This document shows, piece after piece, positions 491-33,043 of a DNA stretch of 33,043 nucleotides (positions are counted from its first letter, which is position 1; every line of letters starts with the position of its first letter). Location of the stretch: the NCBI GenBank assembly GCA_944387905.1, contig CALXGU010000001.1, forward strand, positions 1 through 33,043. Reading direction: 5' to 3'. A program made the translations under genes and the position numbers. Under the pieces are notes generated by a model. The model made no database searches. It had not been told where the DNA came from and worked only from the letters and a program-made list of their open reading frames with translations. The DNA is from an uncultured Clostridia bacterium (GTDB lineage: Bacteria > Bacillota > Clostridia > Oscillospirales > QAKW01).

Positions 491-1819
491 ATGGCTGATA
501 AAAACAACCATTCAGACGGAAAAGACACCCGTCAGATACCCAAAAAAAATATTACCGGAAGCTATCCGGGTGTTACCGGCACCTACCGGCCTCAGGCCAG
601 GCGTTCTGCAGCAAACGGTCCGACCGGCAGGCTTTCCGACAGTATTAAATCCGATAACCGGCAGTCAGAGCTCAAAAGCCAGTCAATAAAAGACAAATCA
701 AATCAGGCACCGCCAGCACAAACAAAAAAAGGTTTTGATTTCAAGCTCTGGTTTTCAAAAGAAAACAACCGTGCGTTTATTCGTCAGCTAAGATTTTACG
801 GGCTTATTGTTTTGGCGTCGCTGCTGCTGACATTCGGTATTATCAACATAAGCAACGATGTTTTTGCGTTTATAAAGCCGGATGAGAGCATAATCGTGAC
901 CATCGAGCAGGGCGTCAGCACCTCCGCTATAGCAAATTCGCTCAAAAAGGCGGGAGTAATTGACCATCCTCTGATTTTCAGGCTTTACAGCAAGCTGAAA
1001 AAGGCGGACGGAAAATATCAGTACGGAGATTATACTCTCAATTCCAACCTCGGTTATGATCAGATCATAAGCGCGCTCAAAAAGCCGTCGGTACAGGCGG
1101 AAACATTTACCGTGACAATCGAACCCGGCTCAACTCAGGACGATATCGTCGAGCTTTTTACAACAAACAAATATGCCTCGGCGGAAGAGCTTGACAACGC
1201 GCTTAACGAGTATGAATATGAGGACTTCGAGTTTGTATCCGAACTGCCTGAAAGACGGTGCAGACTTGAGGGCTATCTCCCGGGCGGTGAATATGAGTTC
1301 TATAAAGGTGAGAGCGCGGTATCCATGGTATCCAAAATGCTGACAAGATTTACCGAAACCATACTTACCGACGAAAACAAAACACTCATAGAAAATTCAG
1401 GTATGACACTTGATGACGTTATAACACTGTCGTCTCTTGTCTATGCCGAATGTGATGATTCGGGCGCTTACAAAGGCGCGGCCCGCGTACTCCTGAACCG
1501 TCTTGCCGATGACCAGGGCCTTCTGCAGCTGACCTGCACTATCAATTACGTTCTGCCTGCAAAAAAGAACGAATTTACTGCAGACGACAAAAAAACAGAC
1601 AGCGAATACAATACTTATATTTATGCCGGACTGCCGCCAGGTCCTGTCTGCAACCCGACCGCAGAAGCGGTAACAGCTGTTCTGTCGCCTGAGCAATCAG
1701 ACAATATGTATTTTGTCAGCGACAATGATAAAACATATTTTGCAAAGACACTCGAAGAGCACAATTCAAACTTAAATAAAGTATCTGCCTCAGCAAAAGG
1801 AACAGATACAATAAGATAA
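491..1819 (+). CDS. mltG: Endolytic murein transglycosylase MltG (YceG-like), with a ~100-aa basic low-complexity N-terminal tail and one TM segment
   Basis: 442-aa ORF whose ATG directly abuts the upstream stop. YceG-type motifs are present: TIEPGST, LSSLVYAE, LLNRL, YNTYIYAGLPPGPVCNP. TM segment is FYGLIVLASLLLTFGIINI. Confidence 0.85.
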   Translation: MADKNNHSDGKDTRQIPKKNITGSYPGVTGTYRPQARRSAANGPTGRLSDSIKSDNRQSELKSQSIKDKSNQAPPAQTKKGFDFKLWFSKENNRAFIRQLRFYGLIVLASLLLTFGIINISNDVFAFIKPDESIIVTIEQGVSTSAIANSLKKAGVIDHPLIFRLYSKLKKADGKYQYGDYTLNSNLGYDQIISALKKPSVQAETFTVTIEPGSTQDDIVELFTTNKYASAEELDNALNEYEYEDFEFVSELPERRCRLEGYLPGGEYEFYKGESAVSMVSKMLTRFTETILTDENKTLIENSGMTLDDVITLSSLVYAECDDSGAYKGAARVLLNRLADDQGLLQLTCTINYVLPAKKNEFTADDKKTDSEYNTYIYAGLPPGPVCNPTAEAVTAVLSPEQSDNMYFVSDNDKTYFAKTLEEHNSNLNKVSASAKGTDTIR

Positions 1820-1838
1820 TAAAAAACGTATCCCCGTT

Positions 1839-1881
1839 GGGAGACACTTCGTAAAGAAGTGTTCTCCCTTATTCATTTTTT
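1839..1881 (+). terminator. Intrinsic terminator of mltG
   Basis: GGGAGACACTTC (1839-1850) / loop GTAAA / GAAGTGTTCTCCC (1856-1868) gives a 12-bp stem with one bulge, followed by TTATTCATTTTTT. An A-tract at 1821-1826 lies upstream. Confidence 0.7.
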
Positions 1882-1920: not shown

Positions 1921-1996
1921 GGGTTACGCACTTTCAAAATGTGCGTAACGGGAGTACATATTTTAAAATTAACCTATCTCAAATATAAGAATATTA

Positions 1997-2160
1997 AGTG
2001 ATATTGTGAGACAGGTCTCACAGTGATATTCTTTAGAATACCTCGCCTTTGGCGAGGTATTTCTAAAGAGTGATATTGAAACTTGTCGTTTCAGTGATAT
2101 TATATTCGCCCTTAAAACTCGCGAAGCGAATACAACTTGGGCTTTAGCCCAAATATCACT
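1997..2160. repeat. 9-nt motif AGTGATATT: four direct copies plus one inverted copy
   Basis: Exact direct copies at 1997-2005, 2022-2030, 2069-2077 and 2093-2101. The exact reverse complement AATATCACT is at 2152-2160. The three gaps between direct copies are each filled entirely by a different hairpin. Confidence 0.85.
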
Positions 2161-2226
2161 GCAAGCAATATAACTCGCCGACCCACAAAACCGTGGCTTT
2201 TGTGGGGTGAAAAGGCGAATATAACT

Positions 2227-2273
2227 GAGGCACACTTCCTTACGGAGTGTGCCTCTTCGGGATACGTTTTTTT
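2227..2273. terminator. Terminator-like hairpin downstream of the deoR-family gene (minus strand); also the likely 3' end of the plus-strand candidate RNA
   Basis: GAGGCACACT (2227-2236) pairs with AGTGTGCCTC (2246-2255). The T7 run at 2267-2273 sits 11 nt after the stem on the plus strand, and a moderately T-rich tract follows on the minus strand. It is homologous in inverted orientation to the mltG terminator module. Confidence 0.5.
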
Positions 2274-2325
2274 ATATCCAAAGTTCAAGCCGGTGTTTAT
2301 ACTGGCTTTCAGACCTTACCGACAT

Positions 2326-3096
2326 TCAATTCATGCCGGGCCATATTATTTCGCAGCCCGCGTCGCGCGCAGCTTCAGCGATATCCGTGTTTGGCACAGT
2401 GTCTGTGAGGATATAGTCAAGTCTGTCAAATCCGCATACAGCGCCCATACAGTCTCTGCCGAATTTACTGCTGTCGCAGAGTAATATACGGGTCGCGGAG
2501 TTTTCAAGCATTTTTCGCTTTATATGAGCCTGATCCCGGCTCGCCTCGGTAACGCCGCGCGTAAGCGAGATACCTGAGCAGGATATTATGCACAGATCGG
2601 CATAAAATCCCGATATATATTCAACAGCGTCCGTGCCCAGAGCGGCATCTGAATACCCGCTGACAGTGCCCGGACATATATACACCTTTACCGCTCCCTG
2701 CTGAGTTAGTTTCAGACAGTTGCGTATACCGTTTGTTATAACGGATACCGGACCGGCCGATATAAGGTACGGTATAACCGCACCGGCGCTCGAGCTGGAA
2801 TCAATAAAAACCGTCGTTTCCGGCCGCAGAAAATCACTTACCAGCCCCGCAATAACTCGTTTTTTCTGAACATTCTGCTTTTCCCGTATCATACCCGGAC
2901 TTTCAACTGCGCCGCCCTGAGGCAGAAACGCACCGCCGTGGCTGCGGCTGAGCACACCGCTCTTTTCAAGATCTATAAGATCACGCCTGATCGTCGCCTC
3001 CGATACATACAGGTTCTGAGCAAGCTCCTGCACTGTTACGCTTTTTTTTCGATGCAGCTCATCAGCTATTTTTTGCTGTCTCTCTTTTTTAAACAT
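2326..3096 (-). CDS. DeoR/GlpR-family transcriptional repressor
   Basis: 256 aa. N-terminal HTH is SVTVQELAQNLYVSEATIRRDLIDLEKSGVLSRSHGGA, followed by a C-terminal sugar-phosphate-binding DeoR-C-like domain. Its ATG overlaps the stop of the upstream gene (TAATG). Confidence 0.85.
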   Translation of the reverse strand: MFKKERQQKIADELHRKKSVTVQELAQNLYVSEATIRRDLIDLEKSGVLSRSHGGAFLPQGGAVESPGMIREKQNVQKKRVIAGLVSDFLRPETTVFIDSSSSAGAVIPYLISAGPVSVITNGIRNCLKLTQQGAVKVYICPGTVSGYSDAALGTDAVEYISGFYADLCIISCSGISLTRGVTEASRDQAHIKRKMLENSATRILLCDSSKFGRDCMGAVCGFDRLDYILTDTVPNTDIAEAARDAGCEIIWPGMN

Positions 3097-3971
3097 TATT
3101 TGTTATTGCTCCTTGTTGCCCGGTATTCATGCATATACCAAGGAATATCCGTCAAAATCACGTTGAAGCCTTTCTCCGCCAAAAAATCCCACGCCGCACC
3201 GGGGCTTTCAAGCACAGCGCGGTCGTCGTTATGCCATGCCGACACATTCCAGTCAGGGCCTATCATCTCGCTGCCCGTCAGACGTATATAATCCTTATTT
3301 TTGAGATATTCCAAAACTTTGTCGCTTATTATCTGATCCTGTTCTGTTCTGAACAGCAGCTCAAAGCCGGCAAGATTTATATCATATTTCTCAGCCGTGT
3401 ATATCTGCTCGGGAGTGCTTACTATCGCAAGATACGGAATATCAAATCCCGAAGCCTCAAGTTCCTGCATGAATCTTTCATTAAAAGAGGTCTTGAACAG
3501 AAATCTGTCGGTCATGCCGTACTTCTCTATCAGTTCAAGCGCTCCCGCCGAATATGAAAAATCCTCAAAATCCTTATCCCAGCAGCGGTCAAGGTTGAAA
3601 AGAGCATCGTCATCGGCAAACGCCTTGAGAAAATCCTCGAATCTGTCAAGCACGCGTCCGGTTTTTTTACCGTAGTAATTTCTTGTCTCAAGCATGTTTA
3701 TCTGCGTGTCGGTCATCGTCCGGCTGTTTAGTTTGACACCCAGATTCTGCTGCTCCGTGCCGTCATGGATACAGTAGTACTCCTTGCTGTCGTTTCGTAT
3801 AACGTCCATTTCCACCATGTCAGCGTGAAAAGCAAAACTGGCTTTGTACGCGTTTATCGTATTTTCCGTAAATGTTCCCATATGCGTACCGCGGTGCGCA
3901 GCAATCAAAAAGCCTTTTTCTTTTATTCTTTCTTTTATTCTCATATTTACCGCATCGTATTTATTTCTCAT
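3096..3971 (-). CDS. Glycerophosphodiester phosphodiesterase (GDPD) family protein
   Basis: GDPD signature LIAAHRG...ENT...ADMVEMDV. I chose the start at 3971 (MRNKYD) because AAAGGGGATAAGGAA precedes it. The longest ORF begins at 4016 but has no SD. Confidence 0.7.
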   Translation of the reverse strand: MRNKYDAVNMRIKERIKEKGFLIAAHRGTHMGTFTENTINAYKASFAFHADMVEMDVIRNDSKEYYCIHDGTEQQNLGVKLNSRTMTDTQINMLETRNYYGKKTGRVLDRFEDFLKAFADDDALFNLDRCWDKDFEDFSYSAGALELIEKYGMTDRFLFKTSFNERFMQELEASGFDIPYLAIVSTPEQIYTAEKYDINLAGFELLFRTEQDQIISDKVLEYLKNKDYIRLTGSEMIGPDWNVSAWHNDDRAVLESPGAAWDFLAEKGFNVILTDIPWYMHEYRATRSNNK

Positions 3972-4105
3972 TTCCTTATCCCCTTTATGTTTATTTATGT
4001 TTATATCATAGCTCATATTTGTTCATTTTGCAATAGAGTAAACAAATATAGACATTTTTTTATTTGTATGCTAAAATATAAAAAAACAAAACGGAGGAAA
4101 GACAC

Positions 4106-5365
4106 ATGGACAGCAGCATACTTAACGCATACGAGCTTGCCAAGCAGGCATATGCAAAAATCGGCGTCGACACCGACAGCGTTATCGAAAAGCTGAAAAA
4201 AGTCAAAATTTCAATAAACTGCTGGCAGGGCGATGATGTAAACGGTTTTCTTTTTAAAGATATCGCGCTTTCAGGCGGCATACAGACTACCGGCAACTAC
4301 CCGGGCAAAGCCACTACAGTTGAGCAGCTGCGCGCGGACATTGATATGGCGTTGTCTCTGATCCCGGGAAAACACAAGCTGAATCTGCATTCGATTTACG
4401 CAGACACAAACGAAAAGGTGGATCTGGACGAAATAGAGCCTTCGCACTATGCCGGCTGGGTGAGCTGGGCAAAAGAGCGCGGACTGGGTCTTGACTTTAA
4501 TCCGACATGCTTTTCACACCCCATGGCGGACAGCGGCTTTACTCTGTCAAGCGCGGATGACAAAACGCGCAGGTTCTGGATCGAGCACTGCAAGCGCTGC
4601 CGTGAGATAGCTGATTATTTCGGCCGCGAGCTGGGACAGAAGTGCGTTACCAACTTCTGGTTCCCGGACGGATACAAGGATATACCGGTCGACCGTCAGG
4701 CGCCCAGAGAGAGAATGAAGAGCGCACTTGACGAGGTGTTTGAAAAACAATATGACGCAAGATACAGCCTTGACGCGATAGAGAGCAAGGTATTCGGCAT
4801 CGGAGCGGAGAGCTACACTGTCATTTCAAATGAATTTGCCGTTGCATATGCGGTCGAGCACGGAAAGGCTTGCTGTCTTGACGCGGGACACTACCACCCC
4901 ACCGAGGTCATATCGGACAAGATACCGACAGTCCTGATGTTTACAGACGAGCTTCTGCTTCACGTCTCACGCCCGGTACGCTGGGACAGCGACCATGTGG
5001 TCATTCTTGATGACGAGCTGGTTGCTATTGCTCATTCGCTTGTACGCGGAGATCTTCTGGACAGAACCCATATCGGTCTGGATTTCTTTGACGCGTCAAT
5101 CAACAGAATAGCGGCCTGGACTATCGGCACAAGAAACATGATAAGAGCTCTGCTTTACGCGATGCTTGAGCCGACGGAAATGCTTAAAAAGACAGAGCTT
5201 GAGGGCGATTACACTTCACGGCTGGCTCTTACCGAGGAGTATAAGTCATACCCGTTCGGCGCTGTATGGGATTACTACTGTCAGCTGATGGACGTGCCTG
5301 TACGCGAAAACTGGCTTACCAAAGTAAAGGATTACGAAAAGAAAATTACAGAGGAGAGAAACTGA
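4106..5365 (+). CDS. rhaA: L-rhamnose isomerase
   Basis: 419 aa. N-terminus AYELAKQAYAKIGVDTDSVIEKLKKVKISINCWQGDDVNGF closely parallels E. coli RhaA (WELAKQRF...SMHCWQGDDVSGF). SD GGAGGA lies upstream. Confidence 0.92.
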   Translation: MDSSILNAYELAKQAYAKIGVDTDSVIEKLKKVKISINCWQGDDVNGFLFKDIALSGGIQTTGNYPGKATTVEQLRADIDMALSLIPGKHKLNLHSIYADTNEKVDLDEIEPSHYAGWVSWAKERGLGLDFNPTCFSHPMADSGFTLSSADDKTRRFWIEHCKRCREIADYFGRELGQKCVTNFWFPDGYKDIPVDRQAPRERMKSALDEVFEKQYDARYSLDAIESKVFGIGAESYTVISNEFAVAYAVEHGKACCLDAGHYHPTEVISDKIPTVLMFTDELLLHVSRPVRWDSDHVVILDDELVAIAHSLVRGDLLDRTHIGLDFFDASINRIAAWTIGTRNMIRALLYAMLEPTEMLKKTELEGDYTSRLALTEEYKSYPFGAVWDYYCQLMDVPVRENWLTKVKDYEKKITEERN

Positions 5366-6177
5366 TGAAAGATATAAAAACCGCACCGTTTTTAAAAGAA
5401 TTCTGCGCTCTTGCCTCTAATATGTACAGACTGGGCTGGGATGAGCGCAACGGAGGAAACATAAGCCTTAACATCGATGCCGATGAAGCTGCGCAGTATA
5501 TAGATCTCAGCGACGTCAAGCGCACATTTACCATTACATTTGATGCGTCCTATCTCGCAGGCCGGCTGTATCTTGTGACAGGCACCGGCAAATATTTCAA
5601 AAACGTGGAGAAAGACCCGGAAAACAATGTGGGTATTATACGTGTGGGAAAGGACGGCAAGACCATAGAGATACTGTGGGGCTACGAGGACGGAGGCCGT
5701 CCCACCAGCGAGCTGCCGGCGCATTTCATGATACATATCGAAAGACTTAAAGTCGATCCTAACCATAAAATAGTAATCCATACCCACTGCACCAATGTAA
5801 TCGCAATGACTTTTGTTCATTCTCTTGACGAAAAAGAGTTTACCAAAACACTGTGGTATATGATAACGGAATGTCTTGTGGTATTCCCGGACGGTATCGG
5901 AGTCTTGCCGTGGATGGTATGCGGAACCGATGAGATAGGTCTGGCAACCGCGGAGAAAATGAAGGACAGACGTCTTTGCGTCTGGGGAATGCACGGCATT
6001 TTCGGAACAGGTACATCGATAGACGAGGCGTTCGGGCTTATCGAAACCGTTGAAAAAGCGGCTGAGATTTACATGAAGATTTCAGACAAACCGATCCTGG
6101 CGCATATAACAGACAATCAGCTCAAAGACCTGGCAAAAGAATTCAAGCTCACTCCCAGAGCCGGGTATCTTGACTGA
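5365..6177 (+). CDS. rhaD: Rhamnulose-1-phosphate aldolase (class II aldolase)
   Basis: The start ATG overlaps the rhaA stop (TGATG). Motifs GWDERNGGN, PTSELPAHF and TECLVVFPDGIGVLPWMVCGTDEIGLATA match E. coli RhaD. The track ORF start at 5266 is an in-frame upstream extension. Confidence 0.9.
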   Translation: MKDIKTAPFLKEFCALASNMYRLGWDERNGGNISLNIDADEAAQYIDLSDVKRTFTITFDASYLAGRLYLVTGTGKYFKNVEKDPENNVGIIRVGKDGKTIEILWGYEDGGRPTSELPAHFMIHIERLKVDPNHKIVIHTHCTNVIAMTFVHSLDEKEFTKTLWYMITECLVVFPDGIGVLPWMVCGTDEIGLATAEKMKDRRLCVWGMHGIFGTGTSIDEAFGLIETVEKAAEIYMKISDKPILAHITDNQLKDLAKEFKLTPRAGYLD

Positions 6178-6221: not shown

Positions 6222-6260
6222 AAAAAAACAGACCTTTTTAAAAAGGTCTGTTTTGCTTTT
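6222..6260. terminator. Bidirectional intrinsic terminator after rhaD
   Basis: AAAACAGACCTTTTT / AAAAAGGTCTGTTTT is a perfect palindromic stem flanked by an A-run on the left and a T-run on the right. Confidence 0.7.
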
Positions 6261-6361
6261 TATCAGTCATTCGCGCAGTAAATGGTCTGTTTTGCTCTTT
6301 ATCAGTCATTCGCGCAGTAAATGGTCTGTTTTGCTCTTTATCAGTCATTCGCGCCGCGCTG
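6245..6361. repeat. Tandem repeat, 3 x 39 bp
   Basis: Units at 6245-6283, 6284-6322 and 6323-6361 (GGTCTGTTTTGCTCTTTATCAGTCATTCGCGCAGTAAAT). Unit 1 supplies the 3' arm of the rhaD terminator. Unit 3 diverges in its last ~8 nt. Confidence 0.9.
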
Positions 6362-7019: not shown

Positions 7020-7826
7020 TCAAAATCCACCGTCCAGAACAGATATAATAAATTCACTTACCTGCTGCTGCGTCACCTGCTCCGTTGACTCAAGCTCTGT
7101 ATATCTGTCATACAGCTTTCTGCTGTTTTCAGCGGTCTTTGCTATAAACTCGCTGTCCGGCAGCCACTGGTAGCCTTTGTCTTCTGAATAGGCGTCTTCG
7201 GCGGTATTTTTCTCATATATTTCAGTTATATATGCTCCGAATCTTTCAAGAATATTTTCCGGAGCAAAAAAATCGGCATTTTTAGTCTCAACAGCCGTCT
7301 TTGCCTTATCGTACTCTGCAAGGTACTCCTCCAGACTGCCGCAGGACAACGCCTCATAGGCGTTCTGCGCAAGAGTGACCATTCCCGCCATATCGATGCG
7401 CGGATACGCTGTCGTATAAATCGACAGAAGATATATCACCTCATCACCGTAGACCCAGGGCTGTGCCTCTATTATGTATTCCTCACCCTTTTTCATGTTT
7501 ATTCTGGACATAAAATACTCGGTCGTCCCGACACAGTAAAGCTTTGCCTGTCCCGTGGGAGTATAGCCGTCTATACTGCGTGTTATATCTACTGTATATA
7601 CGGTATATTCGGTTATGTCCAGATTATATTTTGTTATAAGCGCGTTTTCTGTGCTTATAGATTCGATGCTTCCGATAAATACATTTTTCTGCAGTTCTAA
7701 AGTATTTTCAAATCTTGTCGAAATTCCGGTATCGGTACCAACTATTTTCTGATCACCGGATTTTGTACATCCGGTACAAAACAGCACTATTATTACGGCA
7801 AGACAAATCAGTTTCTTTTTCATCAT
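7020..7826 (-). CDS. Hypothetical secreted protein, probable lipoprotein
   Basis: 268 aa. N-terminus MMKKKLICLAVIIVLFCTGCTKSG is a signal peptide with a lipobox-like TG|C. Its start overlaps the upstream stop (ATGA). Confidence 0.6.
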   Translation of the reverse strand: MMKKKLICLAVIIVLFCTGCTKSGDQKIVGTDTGISTRFENTLELQKNVFIGSIESISTENALITKYNLDITEYTVYTVDITRSIDGYTPTGQAKLYCVGTTEYFMSRINMKKGEEYIIEAQPWVYGDEVIYLLSIYTTAYPRIDMAGMVTLAQNAYEALSCGSLEEYLAEYDKAKTAVETKNADFFAPENILERFGAYITEIYEKNTAEDAYSEDKGYQWLPDSEFIAKTAENSRKLYDRYTELESTEQVTQQQVSEFIISVLDGGF

Positions 7827-9694
7827 TGCTCACCATTTTCACCGGTATCCCAGACCTGGTGTGTAGGATCTTTATCATCGGCATCCTGCGAAGGTCTCCA
7901 AACGCCGTGAGACGGCTGATCGCTGTCCGTGTCGGTATCGGTCGGCTGATCGCTGTTCGTGTCGGTATCGGTCGGCTGATCGCTGTCCGTATCGGTATCG
8001 GTCGGCTGATCGCTGTCCGTATCGGTATCGGTCGGCTGATCGCTGTCCGTGTCGGTATCGGTCGGCTGATCGCTGTCCGTATCGGTATCGGTCGGCTGAT
8101 CGCTGTCCGTGTCGGTATCGGTCGGACGCTCAACGTCAATGTCCGGGACGGCAATATCATCATCCATATCCGGCTCGGCGGGCTGCTCATTCTCATAAAC
8201 AGACGGGGAGTAAAGATCAACGATCTGTTTGAAATAAACGTCCTGTCTGTCATAAAAGCTCTGGAGCTTGAAATACATATCGGATATCTTGTCTGCAAAT
8301 TTAAACTGGTTTTCAGTTTCAATTTTATTCTTTATTGCCTCGGAAATACAGAACTGCGCAGAAAGATCAAGCTCAACGCCGGTATCTATAAGGTTTTTAT
8401 AAAAAACAGGGGTGGCATACTGATTTATCAGCATCGTATCGTTCAGACGGGCGATCTCCAGCATATCGCTGTAATCCGGCTTTATATAAACGCGAAGATA
8501 ATGCAGCGCCCACGAATCATAAGGATTTTCAACACGCAGAGTCATGCTGCTTATGTCAAACACATTCATATCCTGAGGCATTTCCAGCTTGAAAGTGGAT
8601 GTGGTCCCCAATTCAAAATCATCGGTCCCCAGGGTATCAAGCAGATAGCTCTGGGTAAAGCCTGAGTTGTCATCGGCGCTGAGAAATGTTACATCAAGGT
8701 AAATCCTGCCGTCATAATCAAGCGAATCCAGTTCCGGTATCTCAACGCCCTTTGTATAATAAGTAAGAATATCGTTTTGTATCTCGATATTTACTGTTTC
8801 TACATCCAGGTACAGATATTTTGCACCGTTGAGACCGAGCGAGTCGAGCGCATCAGACTTGAGCTGTGCATTTACAAGCTCAGACGCGCCTTTTTCGGCA
8901 AGCTCAAGATAATATGAGTAAATCTGTTTTGAACGGTTATATTTATTATTGGAGGAATGGACTATCTCCAAAGTGGACTGCTTTATCTCATTTTCACCGG
9001 AACCGAACACCGCAGTCTGCTGCCAGCTCTCACGGGCCAGCATCACAGTCTCGTTGCCGAGCAGGAAATACACGCGCGCCCAGCGGCAATACCAGCTGTC
9101 GTAGCTGTTATTGATATCGGGGAGTATCGCTATAGTATATTCTGTTATATCAAACGGCGTATATCCGAACGGAAGAATTATGGTAAAGGTATCGGTCATG
9201 CCGCTTTCAAAATTGTCGTAGTTGGAGTTATTGAGCGCAAACTCGGCTGTATTGCCGTCTGAAAATTTCAGTTTCAGATTCACATTGCCCCTGTCAAGAT
9301 CGACGCCTTTGGGGTTAATATAATTCTCATCGTCTGTTTTGAGCGTGACCTGGATACGGTTCGAAGAGCCCAGCGCGTACAGAGACTTAAGGTACCCGAC
9401 CGAATCATCGAATTCAGTCATGGTAAGTCTTTTGACGATTTTAGCGTCTGTATCAAAAAAAGCGTATGCGTATCTTGAAAAAAGCGAAACGGCCGCGCAC
9501 AGCAGTATAACCGCAAAAAGTGACACGCAGCCTGTAATGAACGGCACACTTTTTATAAAATCACGAAACTTTTTGCTTTTGAGAAAGTTTTTTGATTTTC
9601 TCAACGCGAATTTTATATTTATGACCAGCCATTTTTTCAGACGTTTTCTGTAAATCAGGTCATTTAATTTATCAATAAATCTTTTCAACAGCAT
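7823..9694 (-). CDS. Hypothetical single-pass membrane protein with two PLAT/LH2-like beta-sandwich repeats and a C-terminal acidic decapeptide array
   Basis: 623 aa. Basic N-terminus, then TM segment FITGCVSLFAVILLCAAVSLF. Two internally similar modules end ...DSWYCRWARVYFLL and ...DSWALHYLRVYIKP. The C-terminus carries 7 x PTDTDTDSDQ. SD AAAGGA lies upstream. The PLAT assignment is by motif pattern only. Confidence 0.6.
   Translation of the reverse strand: MLLKRFIDKLNDLIYRKRLKKWLVINIKFALRKSKNFLKSKKFRDFIKSVPFITGCVSLFAVILLCAAVSLFSRYAYAFFDTDAKIVKRLTMTEFDDSVGYLKSLYALGSSNRIQVTLKTDDENYINPKGVDLDRGNVNLKLKFSDGNTAEFALNNSNYDNFESGMTDTFTIILPFGYTPFDITEYTIAILPDINNSYDSWYCRWARVYFLLGNETVMLARESWQQTAVFGSGENEIKQSTLEIVHSSNNKYNRSKQIYSYYLELAEKGASELVNAQLKSDALDSLGLNGAKYLYLDVETVNIEIQNDILTYYTKGVEIPELDSLDYDGRIYLDVTFLSADDNSGFTQSYLLDTLGTDDFELGTTSTFKLEMPQDMNVFDISSMTLRVENPYDSWALHYLRVYIKPDYSDMLEIARLNDTMLINQYATPVFYKNLIDTGVELDLSAQFCISEAIKNKIETENQFKFADKISDMYFKLQSFYDRQDVYFKQIVDLYSPSVYENEQPAEPDMDDDIAVPDIDVERPTDTDTDSDQPTDTDTDSDQPTDTDTDSDQPTDTDTDSDQPTDTDTDSDQPTDTDTNSDQPTDTDTDSDQPSHGVWRPSQDADDKDPTHQVWDTGENGEQ
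7914..8123. repeat. Tandem repeat, 7 x 30 bp, in frame inside the CDS 7823-9694
   Basis: The unit GGCTGATCGCTGTCCGTGTCGGTATCGGTC repeats at exact 30-nt phase. Differences are G/A at one synonymous position and one C-to-T change giving D to N. Confidence 0.95.
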
Positions 9695-13473: not shown

Positions 13474-13559
13474 AAACCCACTCCTTTTTTTGCACATTAT
13501 ACAAAAGCATTATGACAATACGATGACGCGAAAATTACACTTTATTCACATAAATTATA

Positions 13560-13580
13560 AAGGCGGAATATATCCGCCTT
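13560..13580. terminator. Hairpin downstream of maa (weak terminator)
   Basis: AAGGCGGA-atata-TCCGCCTT has A/T-rich flanks on both sides but no long T-run. Confidence 0.4.
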
Positions 13581-13601
13581 TTATAAATTATCACCGCTGT
13601 C

Positions 13602-14204
13602 TCACAGCGTTATCTTTCTGTCTCTGAAATAATACATGCGGTCTCTCTCTCCGATGTCTCTGAGCACACGGCACGGATTTCCGACCGCTACGACATTTGC
13701 CGGGATATCCTTTGTGACAACACTTCCCGCGCCGATCACGGTATTGTCGCCTATAGTGACGCCCGGAAGTACTATCGCCCCCGCGCCCAGCCAGCAGTTG
13801 CTTCCGATATGTACAGGTGCGTTGAACTGCGCCGCCTTTAGCCTGAGCTCCGGCAGAACGGGGTGTGCGGCGGCAGCTATGATCACGTTCGGACCGATCA
13901 TTGTTGAAGATCCGATGTATATATGCGTGTCGTCCACAAGCGTAAGGTTGAAGTTGGCGTACACGTTATCTCCCAGGTGCACATGCTTTCCGCTCCAGTT
14001 GGCGTGCAGCGGCGGCTCTATATAGCAGTTTTCTCCGATCTGCGCGAACATTTCCTTCAGCAGCCGCCGGCGCTCCTGCTGCTGGGTCGGACGCGTCGAG
14101 TTGTAGTCATAAAGCTTTTCAAGGCATTTAAGCTGGCTCTCAACCAGCTTTTCGTCATTGCAGAAATAAATGTCGCCGTTATGCATTTTTTCTTCAACGG
14201 TCAT
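13602..14204 (-). CDS. maa: Maltose/galactoside O-acetyltransferase (left-handed beta-helix, hexapeptide repeats)
   Basis: N-terminal Mac domain (EKMHNGDIYFCNDEKLVESQLKCLEKLYDYN) followed by hexapeptide repeats (IGSNCWLGAGAIVLPGVTIGDNTVIGAGSVV). ATG at 14204 is preceded by AAGGAG. Confidence 0.8.
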   Translation of the reverse strand: MTVEEKMHNGDIYFCNDEKLVESQLKCLEKLYDYNSTRPTQQQERRRLLKEMFAQIGENCYIEPPLHANWSGKHVHLGDNVYANFNLTLVDDTHIYIGSSTMIGPNVIIAAAAHPVLPELRLKAAQFNAPVHIGSNCWLGAGAIVLPGVTIGDNTVIGAGSVVTKDIPANVVAVGNPCRVLRDIGERDRMYYFRDRKITL

Positions 14205-17977: not shown

Positions 17978-17997
17978 GAGTAGGATGTTTATTGGGC

Positions 17998-18094
17998 GCG
18001 GCTCGGGTCAGGCGGTCTGCTCGGGGTCAGGCGTGCGGCTCGGGTCAGGCGGTCTGCTCGGGGTCAGGCGCGCGGCTCGGATCAGGCGGTCTGC
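17998..18094. repeat. Tandem repeat, about 2.6 x 37 bp (each unit made of two 18/19-bp sub-repeats GCTCGGG(G)TCAGGCG)
   Basis: Units begin at 17998, 18035 and 18072. The array spans the MATE stop codon at 18045-18047. Confidence 0.85.
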
Positions 18095-28703: not shown

Positions 28704-29009
28704 TTATTTATCTGGTTTGAGTTGATCTTTGAACATTTCAACTAAAGCGTCACTAAGTTCCTGTGATGGCACTTTCGCCCATCTCTGTGTGGTATCGAAC
28801 TTTGGATAGTGGTAACGCCAGTTATCGTATTCTTCTTTACTGATTTCTTCGGAAGATAACTTGTCCGCCTGTTCTTTCCAAGCGTAGAGCATTTTCAGTA
28901 GTTCGTGAGCGTCTTTTCCTTTGTCCTTGCTGACTTTCAGGCAGACTTCTCCGTCTGCTTCGCTGACAGTCAGACCGTATAAATCTTCAAGGGTAAACAA
29001 AGTGTGCAT
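28704..29009 (-). CDS. Hypothetical protein (101 aa), mobile-element-associated context
   Basis: Intact ORF with plausible protein-like composition (…EEYDNWRYHYPKFDTTQRWAKVPSQELSDAL…). No SD or promoter space lies upstream because it abuts the tnpV fragment. I do not recognise a family. Confidence 0.45.
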   Translation of the reverse strand: MHTLFTLEDLYGLTVSEADGEVCLKVSKDKGKDAHELLKMLYAWKEQADKLSSEEISKEEYDNWRYHYPKFDTTQRWAKVPSQELSDALVEMFKDQLKPDK

Positions 29010-29013
29010 CAGT

Positions 29014-29238
29014 CCGATATATCTGAATCTGCTTACAAGTGGAAGGTTGAAAGATTATTTAGTGGATATAGAAGAACAGGCACAGGAACGCTTTGAAAGG
29101 ATTGTAGAGCAGATGAAACCGGCACATGGGATTACAGAACAGTTAAAGGAAGAAAATCAGATGGAATGGGTAGCGAGAATGAACAATATACAATCGTGTG
29201 CAAGGGAGATTGTGGATAAAGAAATGATTTATCAATAA
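29014..29238 (+). pseudogene. tnpV: 5'-truncated tnpV-like gene (transposon-encoded TnpV family)
   Basis: YLNLLTSGRLKDYLVDIEEQAQERFERIVEQMKPAHGITEQLKEENQMEWVARMNNIQSCAREIV matches, from memory, the C-terminal two thirds of TnpV proteins of clostridial and enterococcal transposons. The N-terminal ~50 aa are missing. Confidence 0.7.
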
Positions 29239-29364
29239 GGAAAGTGATATGGTGGAAAGCAAGTCTGAAAATAGCTTGCTTTTTACTTTACAATGTAGGT
29301 GGCTGACGTATATAATTACGATAAAGAGATAAATCTGAATTTGACAATACATTTGGAGGAAGTT

Positions 29365-30234
29365 ATGTATCAAGGAAAACTACGAATTACAAATATTTTA
29401 ATGCTTACACTGGCAGGTATTGTAAATGCTTTTGGTATCACTATTTTTTTAATGCCTGTAAATCTATATGATAGTGGCATTTCCGGAACGTCAATGCTCT
29501 TAGACAAATTAACACCGCAGTGTTTGACGCTGTCCATTTTCCTTGTTGTACTGAATATCCCTTTGTTTTTGTTTGGGTTAAAAAAGCAAGGATGGGTATT
29601 TACGGTATATGCTATCTATGCAGTTTGCATTTACTCCGTATGTGCTTGGTTAATAACTGATGTGCTTCCGATTGATGTAAGCTTCGCCTCTCCGTTAGCT
29701 GGAACGGATTTGCTTCTTTGTGCTCTGTTTGGGGGTGTAATTTCTGGTGTTGGAAGTGGTATAGCAATTCGTTATGGCGGAGCCATGGATGGTATCGAAG
29801 TAATGGCAGTGATTTTTGCAAAACGTCTTGGTATTACAGTAGGTACTTTTGTAATGATATACAATGTGTTACTTTATGTTGTGTGCGGTGTAGTGCTTAA
29901 CAGTTGGATTTTGCCACTATATTCCATTGTTACGTATGCAGCAGCATTAAAAACTATTGATTTTATTGTGGATGGTCTTGATAGGGCAAAATGTGCAGTT
30001 ATTATTACGGAACATCCACAAGAGATTTGTGAGAAACTATGTGAAATGTTTGGAAGCGGTATCACCTATTTGGAGGCAAAAGGCGGCTATTCCAACAAAG
30101 AAAAATCTATGATTTATTTTGTTGTCAATCGTTATCAGATTGTAAGATTGAAAGAAACCGTGCATGATATTGACCCTCTTGCGTATATAACAATTAGCGA
30201 AGTTGCAGATGTATTTCCAAGTAATAACAAGTAA
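29365..30234 (+). CDS. YitT-family membrane protein (DUF161 membrane domain plus C-terminal DUF2179)
   Basis: 289 aa from the ATG at 29365, preceded by GGAGGA. Multiple TM segments and a C-terminal soluble domain (...ITYLEAKGGYSNKEKSMIYFVVNRYQIVRLKETVHDIDPLAYITISEV). The track ORF start at 29299 is an upstream extension. Confidence 0.8.
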   Translation: MYQGKLRITNILMLTLAGIVNAFGITIFLMPVNLYDSGISGTSMLLDKLTPQCLTLSIFLVVLNIPLFLFGLKKQGWVFTVYAIYAVCIYSVCAWLITDVLPIDVSFASPLAGTDLLLCALFGGVISGVGSGIAIRYGGAMDGIEVMAVIFAKRLGITVGTFVMIYNVLLYVVCGVVLNSWILPLYSIVTYAAALKTIDFIVDGLDRAKCAVIITEHPQEICEKLCEMFGSGITYLEAKGGYSNKEKSMIYFVVNRYQIVRLKETVHDIDPLAYITISEVADVFPSNNK

Positions 30235-30405
30235 CTGAATAAAAAGTTGTTGCACACAGACAACTTTCAGTTTGTAGAGGAGAAGAGGGATAATGAAAGA
30301 TAAAAGTATTTTAATTAGTGAGAGGATTTACTGTTGATTTTCTAAGCAAAACCGCTTATAATTTGAGACGGAATATATTGCTATTATCCACAGTTGTAGA
30401 GCGAC

Positions 30406-30436
30406 TGTTATCAATCCTGATAACAAACTGATAACA
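30406..30436 (+). repeat. Inverted half-site TGTTATCA plus 19-nt repeat TGATAACAAACTGATAACA, copy 2
   Basis: 30418-30436 is 18/19 identical to 28405-28423. 30406-30413 is the reverse complement of the TGATAACA half-site. Confidence 0.8.
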
Positions 30437-30659
30437 TTAGTTCATATAGGCAGGATAATATGGATAAATCAAATAATCAAAAGAAATAGGAACACGACAA
30501 CAAATAATATCTAAACAAAATTGATTAGTAATTGTCGAGTGGGAATAAAGGTCAAGCTTTGCAGATACAGCATCTAATACTTTCTCTGCAGATAATGAAA
30601 AATATTTATGCCTATACAACTCATATTATTAATTCAAATTCATCCATTTATAAAATTTA

Positions 30660-30704
30660 AACCGAGTTCGGCTCTATAAATGAGTCGCACTCGGTTCTTT
30701 TTTA
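30660..30704 (+). terminator. Hairpin plus T-run just outside the 3' end of mcrC; better oriented for the plus strand
   Basis: AACCGAGT (30660-30667) pairs with ACTCGGTT (30689-30696) around a 21-nt loop, then CTTTTTTAC. The minus-strand flank is only A/T-rich. Confidence 0.45.
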
Positions 30705-30716
30705 CATTCTGCTCTT

Positions 30717-31769
30717 TTATTCGACAAGCAGAGGATCTGCAATTTTTGATAACTGCAATTTTATAGTGTCAAAATCGCAATTTAAATCAAGTGTTTTAAC
30801 ACTTATTTTATTGCCGCTCATCATATATTCATTATCAGGCTGTACTGATTCATCTGTGCGAGCATACAAAAGCAGTCCTGATACTTTTCCGCTGTTTTCT
30901 GTATCTTTGTTTTTTACATAAGTGAATATTTGATATAAGTTATGGGAATGAAGCGTTTGACTGTTGTATTGTGTAATGGTCTGCATCGTATGCGTATAAT
31001 ATTTGGCATCGATAATAAGCGTTTTTCCTTTATACGATAGCATAATATCAGTTTGCATTATCGGAAGCAATGTCGTTATGCCATCATCCGTTTGCCAGTC
31101 TATTTGTGATGCGTTTGCTGTTATCATCGGATATTCTTTACGATAATATTCAAGTATAAACCTTTCATACAAATGGCTCATTCTTTGATCATCAACAAAT
31201 TCCGCCAACTTATATTCACCTTGCTCTGTCGTCAGTAATAAACCTGAAAGCACGAACTGACAAATACTCAAAAGCATTCTGTAAGTCTGATTGTTTTTTG
31301 TAAAAAGAATCATATTCCAACGAATTAACATAGGATCGATTTCTGATACTCCTTCAAAAAACAACATTTCTTTTTTCAAAATATCCTTATACTCACTTTT
31401 GACTGCCGTTTTCCTTATTAGTAGCTGCGTTGTGGTTTTGATGATTTGATTGTATATGCTGTCTTCTGAAAGCTCGTCAAAGTTGCAAGAAAGCCGCTGC
31501 TGTTTTTGCAATCGGTTTACGATTGTACCCTGAATATCTAATTTGCCGCGCATAACAGTCAGGTTTTCATTCTTTTCAATATACTCGCGATGCAGACCTT
31601 GCTTCAACTGCTGTGCTATACCTTTTGATAAAATTGCGGCAAATAAATCGTGGATATTTTCAAATTTTTCAGAAGCAATTTCATCGTAATTTGATTGATT
31701 CAGCACTTGAAAAGCATAGGTGAGCATATAGTATATATTTTTTATTACTATGCTTTTATCTTTCGTCAT
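30717..31769 (-). CDS. mcrC: McrBC restriction system subunit McrC
   Basis: 351 aa from the ATG at 31769. N-terminus IKNIYYMLTYAF... and the C-terminal PD-(D/E)xK-like region (...LIIDAKYY...) are typical of McrC. The start overlaps the end of the mcrB remnant. Confidence 0.85.
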   Translation of the reverse strand: MTKDKSIVIKNIYYMLTYAFQVLNQSNYDEIASEKFENIHDLFAAILSKGIAQQLKQGLHREYIEKNENLTVMRGKLDIQGTIVNRLQKQQRLSCNFDELSEDSIYNQIIKTTTQLLIRKTAVKSEYKDILKKEMLFFEGVSEIDPMLIRWNMILFTKNNQTYRMLLSICQFVLSGLLLTTEQGEYKLAEFVDDQRMSHLYERFILEYYRKEYPMITANASQIDWQTDDGITTLLPIMQTDIMLSYKGKTLIIDAKYYTHTMQTITQYNSQTLHSHNLYQIFTYVKNKDTENSGKVSGLLLYARTDESVQPDNEYMMSGNKISVKTLDLNCDFDTIKLQLSKIADPLLVE

Positions 31770-32978
31770 CGCAAGCACCACGCAGCAAATTTGCCCAATG
31801 CTGAACTTTTTGAGGATCGTCAAACCAGTATTCATTCAACATAGGAATAATATCATAATTTATGACGTGATTTAACCAATTATCATTATCATGCTGACCG
31901 CAAAAATAGCTATGGCCTATGCAGAAACCTTTCCCTAATGATTTATCGGCAGCAATAGTCCTGTTCAATTCAGTAATAAGCTCAATAACAGAATCCAAAA
32001 TTTCACTATGACATCCTTTTTGATATCTCCTGAATACCTCAGAGTTGAAACCGGGTTCCATATCAACAAAACTGAATCTTCTGCGCAAAGCATAATCAAT
32101 CATAGCAAGACTTCTGTCGGCAGTATTCATCAATCCGATGAGCCAATTCATTCCTCAGCTTCCATACCCAATCGCCTTCCGTATTTGTATCGGCATTACG
32201 GCCCAGATATAAAACAGGCCACCACTTTGAGTTTTCTGAAGCTGGCGGCATAAGAGGGCAGTTCGTTTTTTCTGCTACTCTTTTAGCTAATTGAGTTGAT
32301 CCCATATTATAAAATTGTGAGGGTTCTCCGTATTTTACTGAAAGCTGTTTACAAGTAGCGGCTCCGCCGTAATCATAAAAGCTTTTCATGATTTTAAGAC
32401 CGGTTTCATTGAAAACTGAGGTATCGTTTAACAATGCAGTCCAATCCTCAGCAGATAAACCGGGCGTATAATCAGCAGGAAACCAATTGACGTCAGTTTG
32501 TTTTGCCTTCTGTGAATAAAATCTGCTAATATAAAAGCCGATATCAACGGTAAGTGTTTTGAAAGCGGAATCAGGATAACAGTTTTCATTCAACGATGAT
32601 TTAAGCATATCAATCAGTTCGCCATCCAAAGCTATACTGTCGCAAATTTCATTATATAAATCAAAGCTACCGATAATGTTTTCAGTATTATAACCTTTTT
32701 TCGGCACAAAATCACTTTCCAGCTGCTTGGCGACAGCACGAACTTCGGAATATTTATATATAATACTTGTCGGGATAGCGCAGCCATAAATATGTACTGA
32801 TAGAATTAGCGTTCTGATAATGTTGTTTCCACTCATCATTGCTGTATTGGGAGCGCATTTTTTCTGATTGGATCTGAAAAGAATCAAATCTATCACTTAA
32901 ATTTTTCGTTTCATCGAAAAGATCGATAAACATCATACGAGTCGCTTCCGGATCAGCTTCTGCAAATTGCTTTATCAT
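31756..32978 (-). pseudogene. mcrB: mcrB-like GTPase gene, inactivated by an internal deletion of the P-loop core and by a frameshift
   Basis: Three ORF pieces: 32978-32754, 32896-32096 and 32151-31756. The last carries NWLIGLMNTADRSLAMIDYALRRRFSFV (McrB NTADRS/RRRF motifs). No Walker A or B exists anywhere. The N-terminal-domain sequence ...GDWVWKLRNEL runs directly into the NTADRS segment. Confidence 0.75.
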
Positions 32979-33043
32979 ACCTTAAGGGTAATAATTCATT
33001 GAGGCGAGAAGATTATAAGTCTTATCCGTCGCTTGCAATTATT

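Follow-up and report, generated by a model that had tools for sequence, protein, structure and literature searches.

In a 33,043-nt stretch of DNA from an uncultured Clostridia bacterium (contig CALXGU010000001.1; the whole of this stretch is called the window below), a gap between two convergent genes, mltG and deoR, holds an array in which exact copies of a 9-mer, AGTGATATT, alternate with hairpins. The array is one arm of a dyad-symmetric core of about 230 bp, and this core is part of a 423-nt non-coding unit that lies in the loop of a Rho-independent bidirectional terminator. Homologues of the unit lie in unrelated terminator loops, and its hairpins and a long-range helix, P1, have been kept by compensatory change; of all this we are highly confident. 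The unit is a member of the Gut-1 family (RF01706), of which the published motif covers one arm. Probably the unit is a small mobile element, non-coding and non-autonomous, that targets terminator loops, and the array, as the right arm, would belong to its cis-acting core.

On the plus strand the exact copies of AGTGATATT start at 1997, 2022, 2069 and 2093, and an inverted exact copy lies at 2152-2160. These five compare with 0.45 expected in the window, and five or more were found in none of 100 shuffles. The gaps between the four direct copies measure 16, 38 and 15 nt and each is a hairpin: GTGAGAC-AG-GTCTCAC, then a stem of 17/18 nt with one bulged T and a TTT loop, then GAAAC-TTGTC-GTTTC. 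A sequence-only reading of the window had reported these four copies and their hairpin gaps, and was borne out at every position; so was its placing of the array between convergent genes (mltG on the plus strand, deoR on the minus strand), which are 506 nt apart. The DNA around the array is bacterial chromosome and includes rhamnose-catabolism genes. The array had, however, been taken for the whole feature. The right arm that it described is real, but it is only half, and a mirror arm at 2129-2226 was missed. On the plus strand the mirror arm reads AATACAACT, AATATCACT, AATATAACT and AATATAACT amid four more hairpins, one copy being exact and three degenerate.

In the orientation used by Rfam, which is the minus strand of the window, the composite runs H0, word R1 (AGTTHTATT), H1 (CGCC-loop-GGCG), R2, H2 (GCTTCGC), R3 (AGTGATATT), H3, R4 and H4, and continues with a degenerate word AGTTTTnnG, GGCGAATAN, R5 (AATATCACT), H5, R6, H6, R7, H7 and R8. 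The dyad-symmetric core consists of four word-hairpin pairs, a centre, and four pairs of a hairpin and an inverted word (Table 1). The copy in the window has extra nested hairpins in H1 (2176-2217; 30 nt, CCCACAAAA...TTTTGTGGG) and an enlarged H6 (2031-2068). H6 is similarly enlarged at loci L070 and L087, and the hairpin loops of the element themselves seem to take insertions.

Orthologous loci were fetched via the DeoR homologues P0002-P0007 (86%, 75%, 73% and 71% identity). At L240, whose DeoR is 86% identical to that of the window, positions 1-1834 and 2258-6177 of the window align at 85% and 81%, and 1835-2257 is unmatched, L240 having 5 nt there. L240 and L241 carry an intact bidirectional terminator, AAAAAACGTATCCC-GTATTC-GGGATACGTTTTT, and L242 has GAATAC as its loop. 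The A-tract, the arms and the T-tract of the L240/L241 terminator are all found again in the window, where 423 nt take the place of the loop. The array had been treated as a free-standing locus at a site where only terminators are needed. Neither description holds: it belongs to a block that related genomes lack, and it is half of the core of an insertion inside the terminator itself.

The stop codon of mltG adjoins the A-tract of the split terminator, and the gene order is common to L240-L250. The deoR-mltG arrangement was found without the element, with a gap of 38-149 nt, in nine of the ten loci recovered, five of these nine (L243, L247-L250) coming from more distant lineages. The tenth, L251 (DeoR 70% identity), is also without the element and has a different gene downstream. 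Most of the nine have rhaA and/or GDPD upstream, with GFO on the downstream side, as far as the contig reaches. When metagenomes were scanned with DeoR, no relatives came to light. The 6-nt loop of the intact deoR/mltG terminator is flipped in otherwise identical hairpins, being GTATTC in two contigs (L240, 4838-4843, is one) and its reverse complement, GAATAC, in a third (L242).

A second insertion is polymorphic within a species. L062 and L255-257 have flanks that are 98-99% identical; the empty allele of this site is GGCAGTCT-GCAA-AGACTGCC, whose GCAA loop is interrupted by 311-313 nt in the filled allele. Two nucleotides, AA, at the L062 junction leave the placement ambiguous between the ends. 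Other loci were scored for the signature of a split terminator, namely, ahead of H0, an A-tract with an arm of 8 nt or more and, 73-960 nt past the last word, the complementary arm with a T-tract. It was present in 16 of 46 testable loci, against 1.0 expected from mismatched flanks. The arms differ in every one of these loci and are, therefore, those of host terminators. Positions 1839-2179 of the window are 84% identical to the unit at L017, which sits between unrelated genes: another gene and one that, from its translated open reading frame (ORF) and without a family search, we take to encode an RluA-type pseudouridine synthase. Presence and absence at orthologous sites, with clean boundaries, and dispersed copies at unrelated loci are both seen, as in a mobile element.

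An H0-type hairpin stands directly before R1 in nearly all loci. As the H0 types recur behind unrelated upstream sequences, H0 is part of the unit. The hairpin at the other end, H9, is turned towards mltG, with UUAUUCAUUUUUU after it. It has diverged from H0, of which it is an inverted copy (inverted repeat I1: 44 nt, 1819-1862 with 2232-2275, 70% complementary). It is likely that H0 is a replacement terminator for deoR and H9 a replacement terminator for mltG. The hairpin at 1892-1916 reads on the minus strand as a terminator (it is followed by ATTTTTAT) and on the plus strand as TTGACA-N18-CATAGT.

Comparison of the arms in other genomes showed that the hairpins are maintained. Among 49 homologous right arms, 15 of 16 predicted pairs are kept with changes on both sides, and the palindromic gaps are genuine and not due to chance. 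Among 44 left arms, 98.9% of cells pair (84% when shuffled) and 10 of 16 pairs have double-sided changes; the three pairs of H4 have 21, 22 and 4. The proposed layout of word and hairpin, in which the sequence of the stem is free and its structure conserved, is thus real and widely kept. The proposal that the 9-mer linkers are unpaired is correct for about 7 nt of each. The end bases fail it: the last base of a word pairs with the first base of the next 9-mer, and in 8 of 49 relatives this end pair has changed jointly from T-A to G-C, so that about 7 nt, not 9, are unpaired.

In the helix P1, the tail of R1 together with the 5' arm of H1 pairs with GGCGAATAN, just ahead of R5. The first pair of P1 (col5-col102) is AU in 18, UA in 16, CG in 8, GU in 1 and UG in 1 of the sequences (44/44 paired). 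P1 and H1 compete for the same four bases. Other words (ATGAAAT, GTGATGT and TCGATAT) occur in the same genomes as AGTGATATT with the whole plan kept, and in these word variants, B, C and D, P1 is kept with an entirely different sequence. Sister elements with these words lie at L092 1640-1830 (minus strand), L027 6430-6560 (plus) and L074 4345-4524 (plus), each a few kb from a AGTGATATT element of the same genome; the L092 copy scores 74 bits against Gut-1. In each of the four variants, the words of one arm are complementary to those of the other. A word-word helix between the arms (R4:R5, R3:R6 and so on) was considered and is not accepted as demonstrated, as the single-base changes of the main variant do not covary in register and R1 and R2 systematically place T opposite C. 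The word variants that are tolerated are mirrored in both arms (AGTTATATT/AATATAACT, AGTGGTATT/AATACCACT and AGTGTTATT/AATAACACT).

Relatives were collected from genomes, one for each species, wherever two copies of the 9-mer stood 12-40 nt from each other. This gave at least 120 loci, mostly from gut Oscillospirales (Acutalibacteraceae, Oscillospiraceae, Ruminococcus), and about 65 of those listed hold the same composite. Strong left-arm matches number at least 59 in the 649 kb of listed loci, several loci having two copies. A phage feature was also considered and rejected: the 119 pattern matches in viral contigs are almost all ordinary tandem repeats or chance; one is an element (L142), and its contig looks chromosomal.

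The sequence-only reading knew of no described RNA family with this motif. This was wrong, as the family is Gut-1 (RF01706; PMC2864571). At the Rfam gathering thresholds nothing in the whole window matches; a relaxed scan returned Gut-1 at 30.9 bits (1996-2105, plus strand) and 24.2 bits (2125-2227, minus strand), both below the cut-off of 50 bits. The Rfam model is 77 nt long and corresponds to the left arm only. The large insertions in H1 and H6 lower the score of the window; the left arms of relatives scored 52-74 bits in 12 of the 18 loci tested. Models were then built, with the window left out, from the 49 right arms (model R1) and from the 44 left arms, many of them above the Rfam cut-off (model R2). 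Both match the window on the minus strand (Table 1), and beyond a weak match they match nothing else in it. The weak match, at 13531-13638, proved to be an ordinary terminator.

The left arm of the window has four purine-UGA(A/U)AU words and three short covarying hairpins in the order R1-H1-R2-H2-R3-H3-R4, which is the architecture of Gut-1. By homology and architecture, the element in the window is a member of the Gut-1 family despite its sub-threshold Rfam score. A match to a known repeat family with a trivial explanation had been named as a reason to discard the array; the match exists, yet the explanation is not trivial. In the seed alignment published in 2010 (PMC2864571), the GUGAUAUU members carry AAUAUCAC arms in their unannotated flanks. 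The published Gut-1 motif is only half of a larger dyad-symmetric unit. The Rfam description covers neither the inverted right arm nor P1, and includes nothing on hairpins at the ends, on dispersal or on insertion into terminators. The occurrence of the motif in human gut sequences is all that the 2010 paper says of it (PMC2864571), and in the literature searched no other paper was found for the 9-mer, RF01706 or Gut-1.

Whether the conserved structure acts as RNA or as DNA was considered from its pairs and loops. Among the non-Watson-Crick cells, G·U and A·C are equally frequent (27 v 27 in distinct hairpins, 8 v 8 in our own tally of the right-arm alignment), although these are small numbers obtained with simple inward pairing. 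The GNA/GNRA loops of H1-H4 lie on the strand opposite Rfam's in 75 cases and on Rfam's in none; those of H5-H7 lie on Rfam's strand (the minus strand of the window) in 37 cases and on the plus strand in none (137 distinct hairpins). The favourable loops of each arm are, in other words, on the strand that reads AATATCACT, running 5' to 3' away from the dyad centre, and the polarity flips there. As a consequence, no single transcript has favourable loops in both arms. Triloops (87) outnumber tetraloops (25) and the closing pair is nearly always C-G. The sequence of H2, GCTTCGC, is the complement of GCGAAGC. Hairpins of the GCGNAGC and GCGNNAGC type have exceptional stability as DNA and far less as RNA; they bind single-strand DNA-binding protein poorly and occur at single-strand initiation sites (PMC13037366). 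The pairing statistics, therefore, lean towards DNA hairpins more than RNA.

No promoter is conserved across the family, and the hairpin loops are GNA/GNNA or their complements, with no GGA motif. Two candidate promoters were examined and rejected. An internal sigma-70 promoter at R5/H5 on the plus strand (2076-2103) is largely imposed by the word itself and fails in variant C, and on reading of the sequences it is weak in variants B and D; it is retained solely within the RNA alternative considered below. A rightward promoter with a central TATAAT is without a usable -35 box or TG element. The earlier proposal of a sponge of the CsrB/RsmZ type is not supported for the plus strand: there is no family-wide promoter, G·U is as rare as A·C and the loops have no GGA. 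The more general pair of suggestions made with it, a platform that presents single-stranded sites or a DNA array for a sequence-specific binder, could each still apply to the 9-mers.

That the unit enters the loops of terminator hairpins is shown by its outcomes, and in the window it has split the shared terminator of two host genes. The two strong end hairpins, H0 and H9, each with a T-rich stretch after it, would probably take over termination for both genes, and the insertion would be tolerated as a result. The core would act as folded single-stranded DNA, its GNA/GNNA loops closed by C-G being of the very stable DNA mini-hairpin class. The words of about 7 nt, unpaired between the mini-hairpins, would be read by a trans-acting mobilisation or recombination protein, and the same protein would act on a target that is likewise folded as a hairpin with an exposed loop. 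This reading of the core is offered tentatively, at somewhat less than even chances. In the furthest-reaching version, Gut-1 would be no small RNA (sRNA) but the cis-acting core of mobile elements that form an undescribed class in gut Clostridia and choose their targets by structure. They would integrate into exposed loops of intrinsic-terminator hairpins, rebuild termination by means of the hairpins at their ends and move as folded single-stranded DNA; their inverted word arrays and GNA-capped mini-hairpins would assemble a recombination complex, as attC or the attP of CTX phage does. We consider this version unlikely.

The genes next to the element have a regular arrangement. The gene upstream of R1 is almost always co-oriented with it, and the orientation of the downstream gene is mixed. 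In 13 loci a tRNA gene ends about 40 nt before R1, in the same direction in 13/13, and once it is the end of an rRNA operon. In most other loci the stop codon of an ORF lies a few tens of nt, up to about 90, before R1, just ahead of H0. A tRNA-linked subfamily (L019, L052, L058, L066, L077, L092) has a conserved outward promoter, TTGCAC-N17-TATACT, and a ribosome-binding site after the last word; the promoter drives differing small genes and seems to travel with the element. L091 (880-1700) contains a tandem duplication of about 410 bp that resembles accretion at a tRNA gene, each repeat copy comprising the 3' part of a tRNA (the second a fragment), a terminator, a full element, an outward promoter and the start of a small ORF. 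A module of about 23 nt, GTCTCATACCGTAACAAGCAGGG or its complement, occurs in the tails of several units (L048 1500-1545, L075, L100, L108), in either orientation with respect to the core.

Units whose far arm is 610-960 nt off carry cargo genes, which are small and accessory; a search for larger units, with arms lying over 1 kb past the core, found none. L031 and L048 have as their cargo a TIGR02436 four-helix-bundle protein, encoded inside the unit between the split terminator arms, accompanied in L048 by a small membrane protein. The TIGR02436 gene (107.8 bits), with its own TTGACA/TATAAT promoter, directly follows the element in L031, L048 (704-1054), L013 and L049. The TIGR02436 family was first described in the intervening sequences of 23S rRNA, which are themselves insertions in helix loops. 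This cargo may hint at one mechanism behind the insertions of the unit and those in 23S rRNA hairpin loops. Within 2.6 kb of 65 copies, the only recurrent proteins were spurious ORFs over the repeats and this four-helix-bundle gene (four loci). L097, which has two arrays 3.4 kb apart, was considered as a transposon with cargo and rejected: the supposed cargo consists of housekeeping genes, and each of the two arrays is a left arm on its own. The genes between them encode nucleoside phosphorylases, an amidohydrolase and a pseudouridine synthase, and the two arrays (3713-3827 and 7283-7401), each behind the 3' end of a different gene, have hairpins that are mutually reverse-complementary.

Several findings weigh against a mobile element that acts as DNA. 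The units and their surroundings yielded no transposase, recombinase or reverse transcriptase, and the mobility of the unit is therefore deduced from outcomes only. No fixed-length target-site duplication is consistent over 16 junction pairs, the AA overlap being seen only in L062, and no conserved tetra- or pentanucleotide target is present at the left junction. The H0/H9 inverted copies are about 70% alike in the subfamily of the window, L017, L060, L069 and L113, and the right ends of other subfamilies are unrelated. The conserved arrays are clustered near one end of the unit, unlike the usual transposase sites, which are at both. Elements right behind tRNA genes are preceded by an intact terminator and have no split arms. 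The G·U and A·C counts are low, and four words in a single genome are awkward for one protein reader. To these must be added the points that favour a functional structured RNA, either a stand-alone sRNA or a 3' trailer of the upstream gene or tRNA, whose words titrate or recruit an RNA-binding protein or pair with one another; this would make the element a mobile sRNA gene or a module of the 3' untranslated region. Gut-1 was rated 'certainly RNA' by its curators (PMC2864571) and is classed as an sRNA with covariation by Rfam and by Weinberg; the left arm points the same way as the upstream 3' end in nearly all loci (tRNAs 13/13, most ORFs), as a transcribed element of a 3' untranslated region would; some solo arrays (L115, L015, L036) lie between a stop codon and a terminator; and some of the loops are GNRA tetraloops. 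The candidate plus-strand promoter at R5/H5, TTGAAA-16-TGaTATTAT (2076-2103 of the window), fits 40 of 62 elements and would drive an RNA antisense to Gut-1, from P1 to H0. That promoter is, however, absent in variant C and weak in B and D, and in Rfam's orientation there is no room for one. In composites the H0 terminator hairpin separates the upstream gene from the array. The equality of A·C and G·U, the excess of triloops over tetraloops and the reversal of loop polarity at the centre are also poorly explained by an RNA, and H2, with 2 bp, would be marginal as one (mean -1.2 kcal/mol). A functional RNA is for these reasons a serious but rather unlikely explanation.

An array of binding sites in duplex DNA, of the iteron or operator kind, would account for 4 + 4 inverted 9-mers at intervals of 16-25 bp and for the mirror-image spectrum of tolerated words in the two arms. 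Such an array could be a roadblock or insulator where genes end, a regulator of the promoter found after the element at some loci, or a nucleoid or topoisomerase site; the enrichment of the element behind tRNA and rRNA operons would suit it, as would the subfamily in which about 5 bp separate the end of the last word from the -35 box of the conserved outward promoter. It would leave the self-complementarity of the spacers, with its dozens of compensatory changes, and P1 without a reason, it would need four proteins for the four words of a genome, and no linked regulator or Rep gene was seen; we regard it as improbable. An iteron-type replication origin was rejected, the context being chromosomal housekeeping genes, with no Rep gene near the copies and only one element among the 119 matches in viral contigs. 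At the other extreme, the unit may have no reader at all and be a neutral, selfish palindrome or terminator cassette that brings its own terminators, spreads by recombination or template switching between terminators, and owes its palindromy to intrastrand templated repair and not to selection. The near-perfect Watson-Crick stems with G·U equal to A·C, the missing enzyme and the likeness of a hairpin followed by AGUKAUAUU to a weak terminator would all fit, and the inverted terminator loop of L240 and L242 implies that such palindromes do rearrange. But the words are kept to the base across bacterial families while the stems drift, the loop polarity is absolute (112 v 0), and all four word variants retain the module order, the degenerate ninth word and P1. 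Conservation of the words, polarity of the loops and constancy of the module order imply selection on specific sequence, and a passive cassette seems a poor candidate.

A mobile element that targets terminator loops has partial counterparts among known systems. REP sequences and BIMEs are extragenic, number dozens in a genome, lie at gene 3' ends, form alternating clusters of hairpins and are thought to move as single-stranded DNA hairpins. The family described here resembles them as extragenic hairpin clusters at gene 3' ends, present in dozens of copies and acting or tolerated as terminator-like sequences; in REPs, however, the palindrome is conserved within a genome, next to a conserved tetranucleotide, and the linkers vary, and here it is the reverse. 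Insertion of REPs into terminator loops is not known, and no RAYT or Y1 gene was found within 2.6 kb of the element copies. The family resembles IS200/IS605 and their miniature derivatives in having no clear terminal inverted repeats beyond the diverged H0/H9 pair of one subfamily and no clear target duplication, and in its subterminal hairpins, a terminator-like hairpin at the upstream end and the logic of single-stranded substrate and target. The terminator-like hairpins at the upstream ends of IS200/IS605 block incoming transcription, and replacement of a terminator has been put forward there too (PMC13548323). The family differs in having no TnpA/TnpB gene and no conserved target, and the 4 + 4 word array has no counterpart in these insertion sequences. 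IS1397 and ISKpn1, which insert into REP loops, and class C group II introns likewise target a DNA stem-loop. All of these have an enzyme gene of their own, and the insertion point of group IIC introns is behind the hairpin and not in its loop; Rfam found no group II intron domains in the window.

The attC sites of integrons and the attP(+) of CTX phage are also recombination sites formed only by folded single strands, in which structure is kept and sequence is free; their inverted short boxes pair into the duplex that the protein binds, and asymmetric features set the choice of strand. In the present case, however, there is no linked integrase, the point of recombination is at the ends of the unit and not in the word array, and pairing between the words of the two arms has no covariation support in the main variant. 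Pneumococcal BOX elements, like other modular intergenic repeats, are modular, non-coding, variable in module number, stably folded and dispersed between genes; their sequence is unrelated, their modules are conserved in sequence and no targeting of terminator loops has been described for them. CsrB/RsmZ similarly carry many copies of a short motif on a scaffold of hairpins, but their GGA is mainly in the loops and they have their own regulated promoter and terminator, whereas here the words lie between the hairpins and GGA is lacking. Single-stranded DNA initiation signals (the G4 origin, RSF1010 ssiA and the N4 promoters) share the C-GNA-G/GCGNAGC hairpins (PMC13037366). As in the present core, paired signals (there ssiA and ssiB) lie on opposite strands and face away from a centre; a primase or polymerase recognises them in single-stranded form (PMC13037366). 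Those signals are, however, in replicons, and here there are dozens of chromosomal copies and no replication genes. DnaA and Fur boxes, dif, arm-type sites, the C/D box and the anti-Shine-Dalgarno sequence were also considered, and none matched well. In the literature searched, no description was found of a non-coding element that chooses terminator loops as its target.

Table 1 Features of the inserted unit and its two host genes in the window (words and hairpins of the core are given as read on the minus strand)
Feature	Position	Strand	Details
YceG/MltG-family host gene (mltG)	491-1819	+	Pfam PF02618, E = 1.7e-68
Split host terminator, first half	1821-1834		A-tract 1821-1826, stem arm CGTATCCC 1827-1834; pairs with 2259-2266
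Inserted non-coding unit, 423 nt	1835-2257	- (Rfam Gut-1 orientation)	No counterpart at any orthologous locus examined
End hairpin H9	1839-1868	+	GGGAGACACTTC-GTAAA-GAAGTGTTCTCCC, then TTATTCATTTTTT; kept in L017, L060
10-bp hairpin	1892-1916	either	TGACACTTTC-TATTT-GAAAGTGTCA; kept in L017, L060
12-bp hairpin, unit tail	1923-1949		GTTACGCACTTT-CAA-AATGTGCGTAAC; inverted repeat I8; in L017, not in L060
Right arm of core (the 9-mer array)	1997-2101	-	Model R1, 1995-2103, 74.1 bits, E = 3.2e-11
Right-arm words		-	R5 AATATCACT 2101-2093, R6 2077-2069, R7 2030-2022, R8 2005-1997
Right-arm hairpins		-	H5 2092-2078, H6 2068-2031 (enlarged), H7 2021-2006
Long-range helix P1, one strand	2102-2110		ATATTCGCC (+ strand); pairs with 2214-2222 (GGCGAATAT)
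Dyad centre	2111-2128	-	H4 CGC-TTC-GCG 2128-2120, then degenerate ninth word AGTTTTAAG 2119-2111
Left arm of core (Rfam Gut-1 motif proper)	2129-2226	-	Model R2, 2093-2226, 93.4 bits, E = 3.8e-19
Left-arm words		-	R4 AGTTGTATT 2137-2129, R3 AGTGATATT 2160-2152, R2 AGTTATATT 2175-2167, R1 AGTTATATT 2226-2218
Left-arm hairpins		-	H3 2151-2138, H2 2166-2161, H1 2217-2176 (with nested 30-nt hairpin)
End hairpin H0	2227-2255	-	GAGGCACACTCC-GTAA-GGAAGTGTGCCTC, then U-rich AGUUAUAUU; faces deoR
Split host terminator, second half	2259-2273		Stem arm GGGATACG 2259-2266, T-tract 2267-2273
DeoR-family regulator, host gene (deoR)	2326-3096	-	Pfam PF00455 and PF08220; convergent with mltG

Elsewhere in the window, tandem repeats are present at 6241-6354 (39 nt x 2.9, in an intergenic gap) and at 7913-8125 (30 nt x 7.1, inside ORF 7823-9694, which encodes a PLAT-domain protein), and repeats of 18/37 nt at 17996-18094. 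The GC content falls from about 0.47 to 0.32-0.38 over 29000-33043, which may be foreign DNA.

Gut-1 has been an orphan motif, held to be certain RNA, since 2010, with neither a function nor a cultivated host assigned to it, and is recast here as half of a dyad-symmetric mobile insertion. If this is true, its annotation as an sRNA in gut metagenomes would change to that of a repeat element, and terminator hairpins would come to be recognised as places where mobile DNA lands in abundant gut Firmicutes. The filled and empty alleles within one species would then give a direct handle on the mobilising enzyme. Such insertions alter the 3' ends of genes and tRNA operons, and can bring with them outward promoters and small cargo genes.

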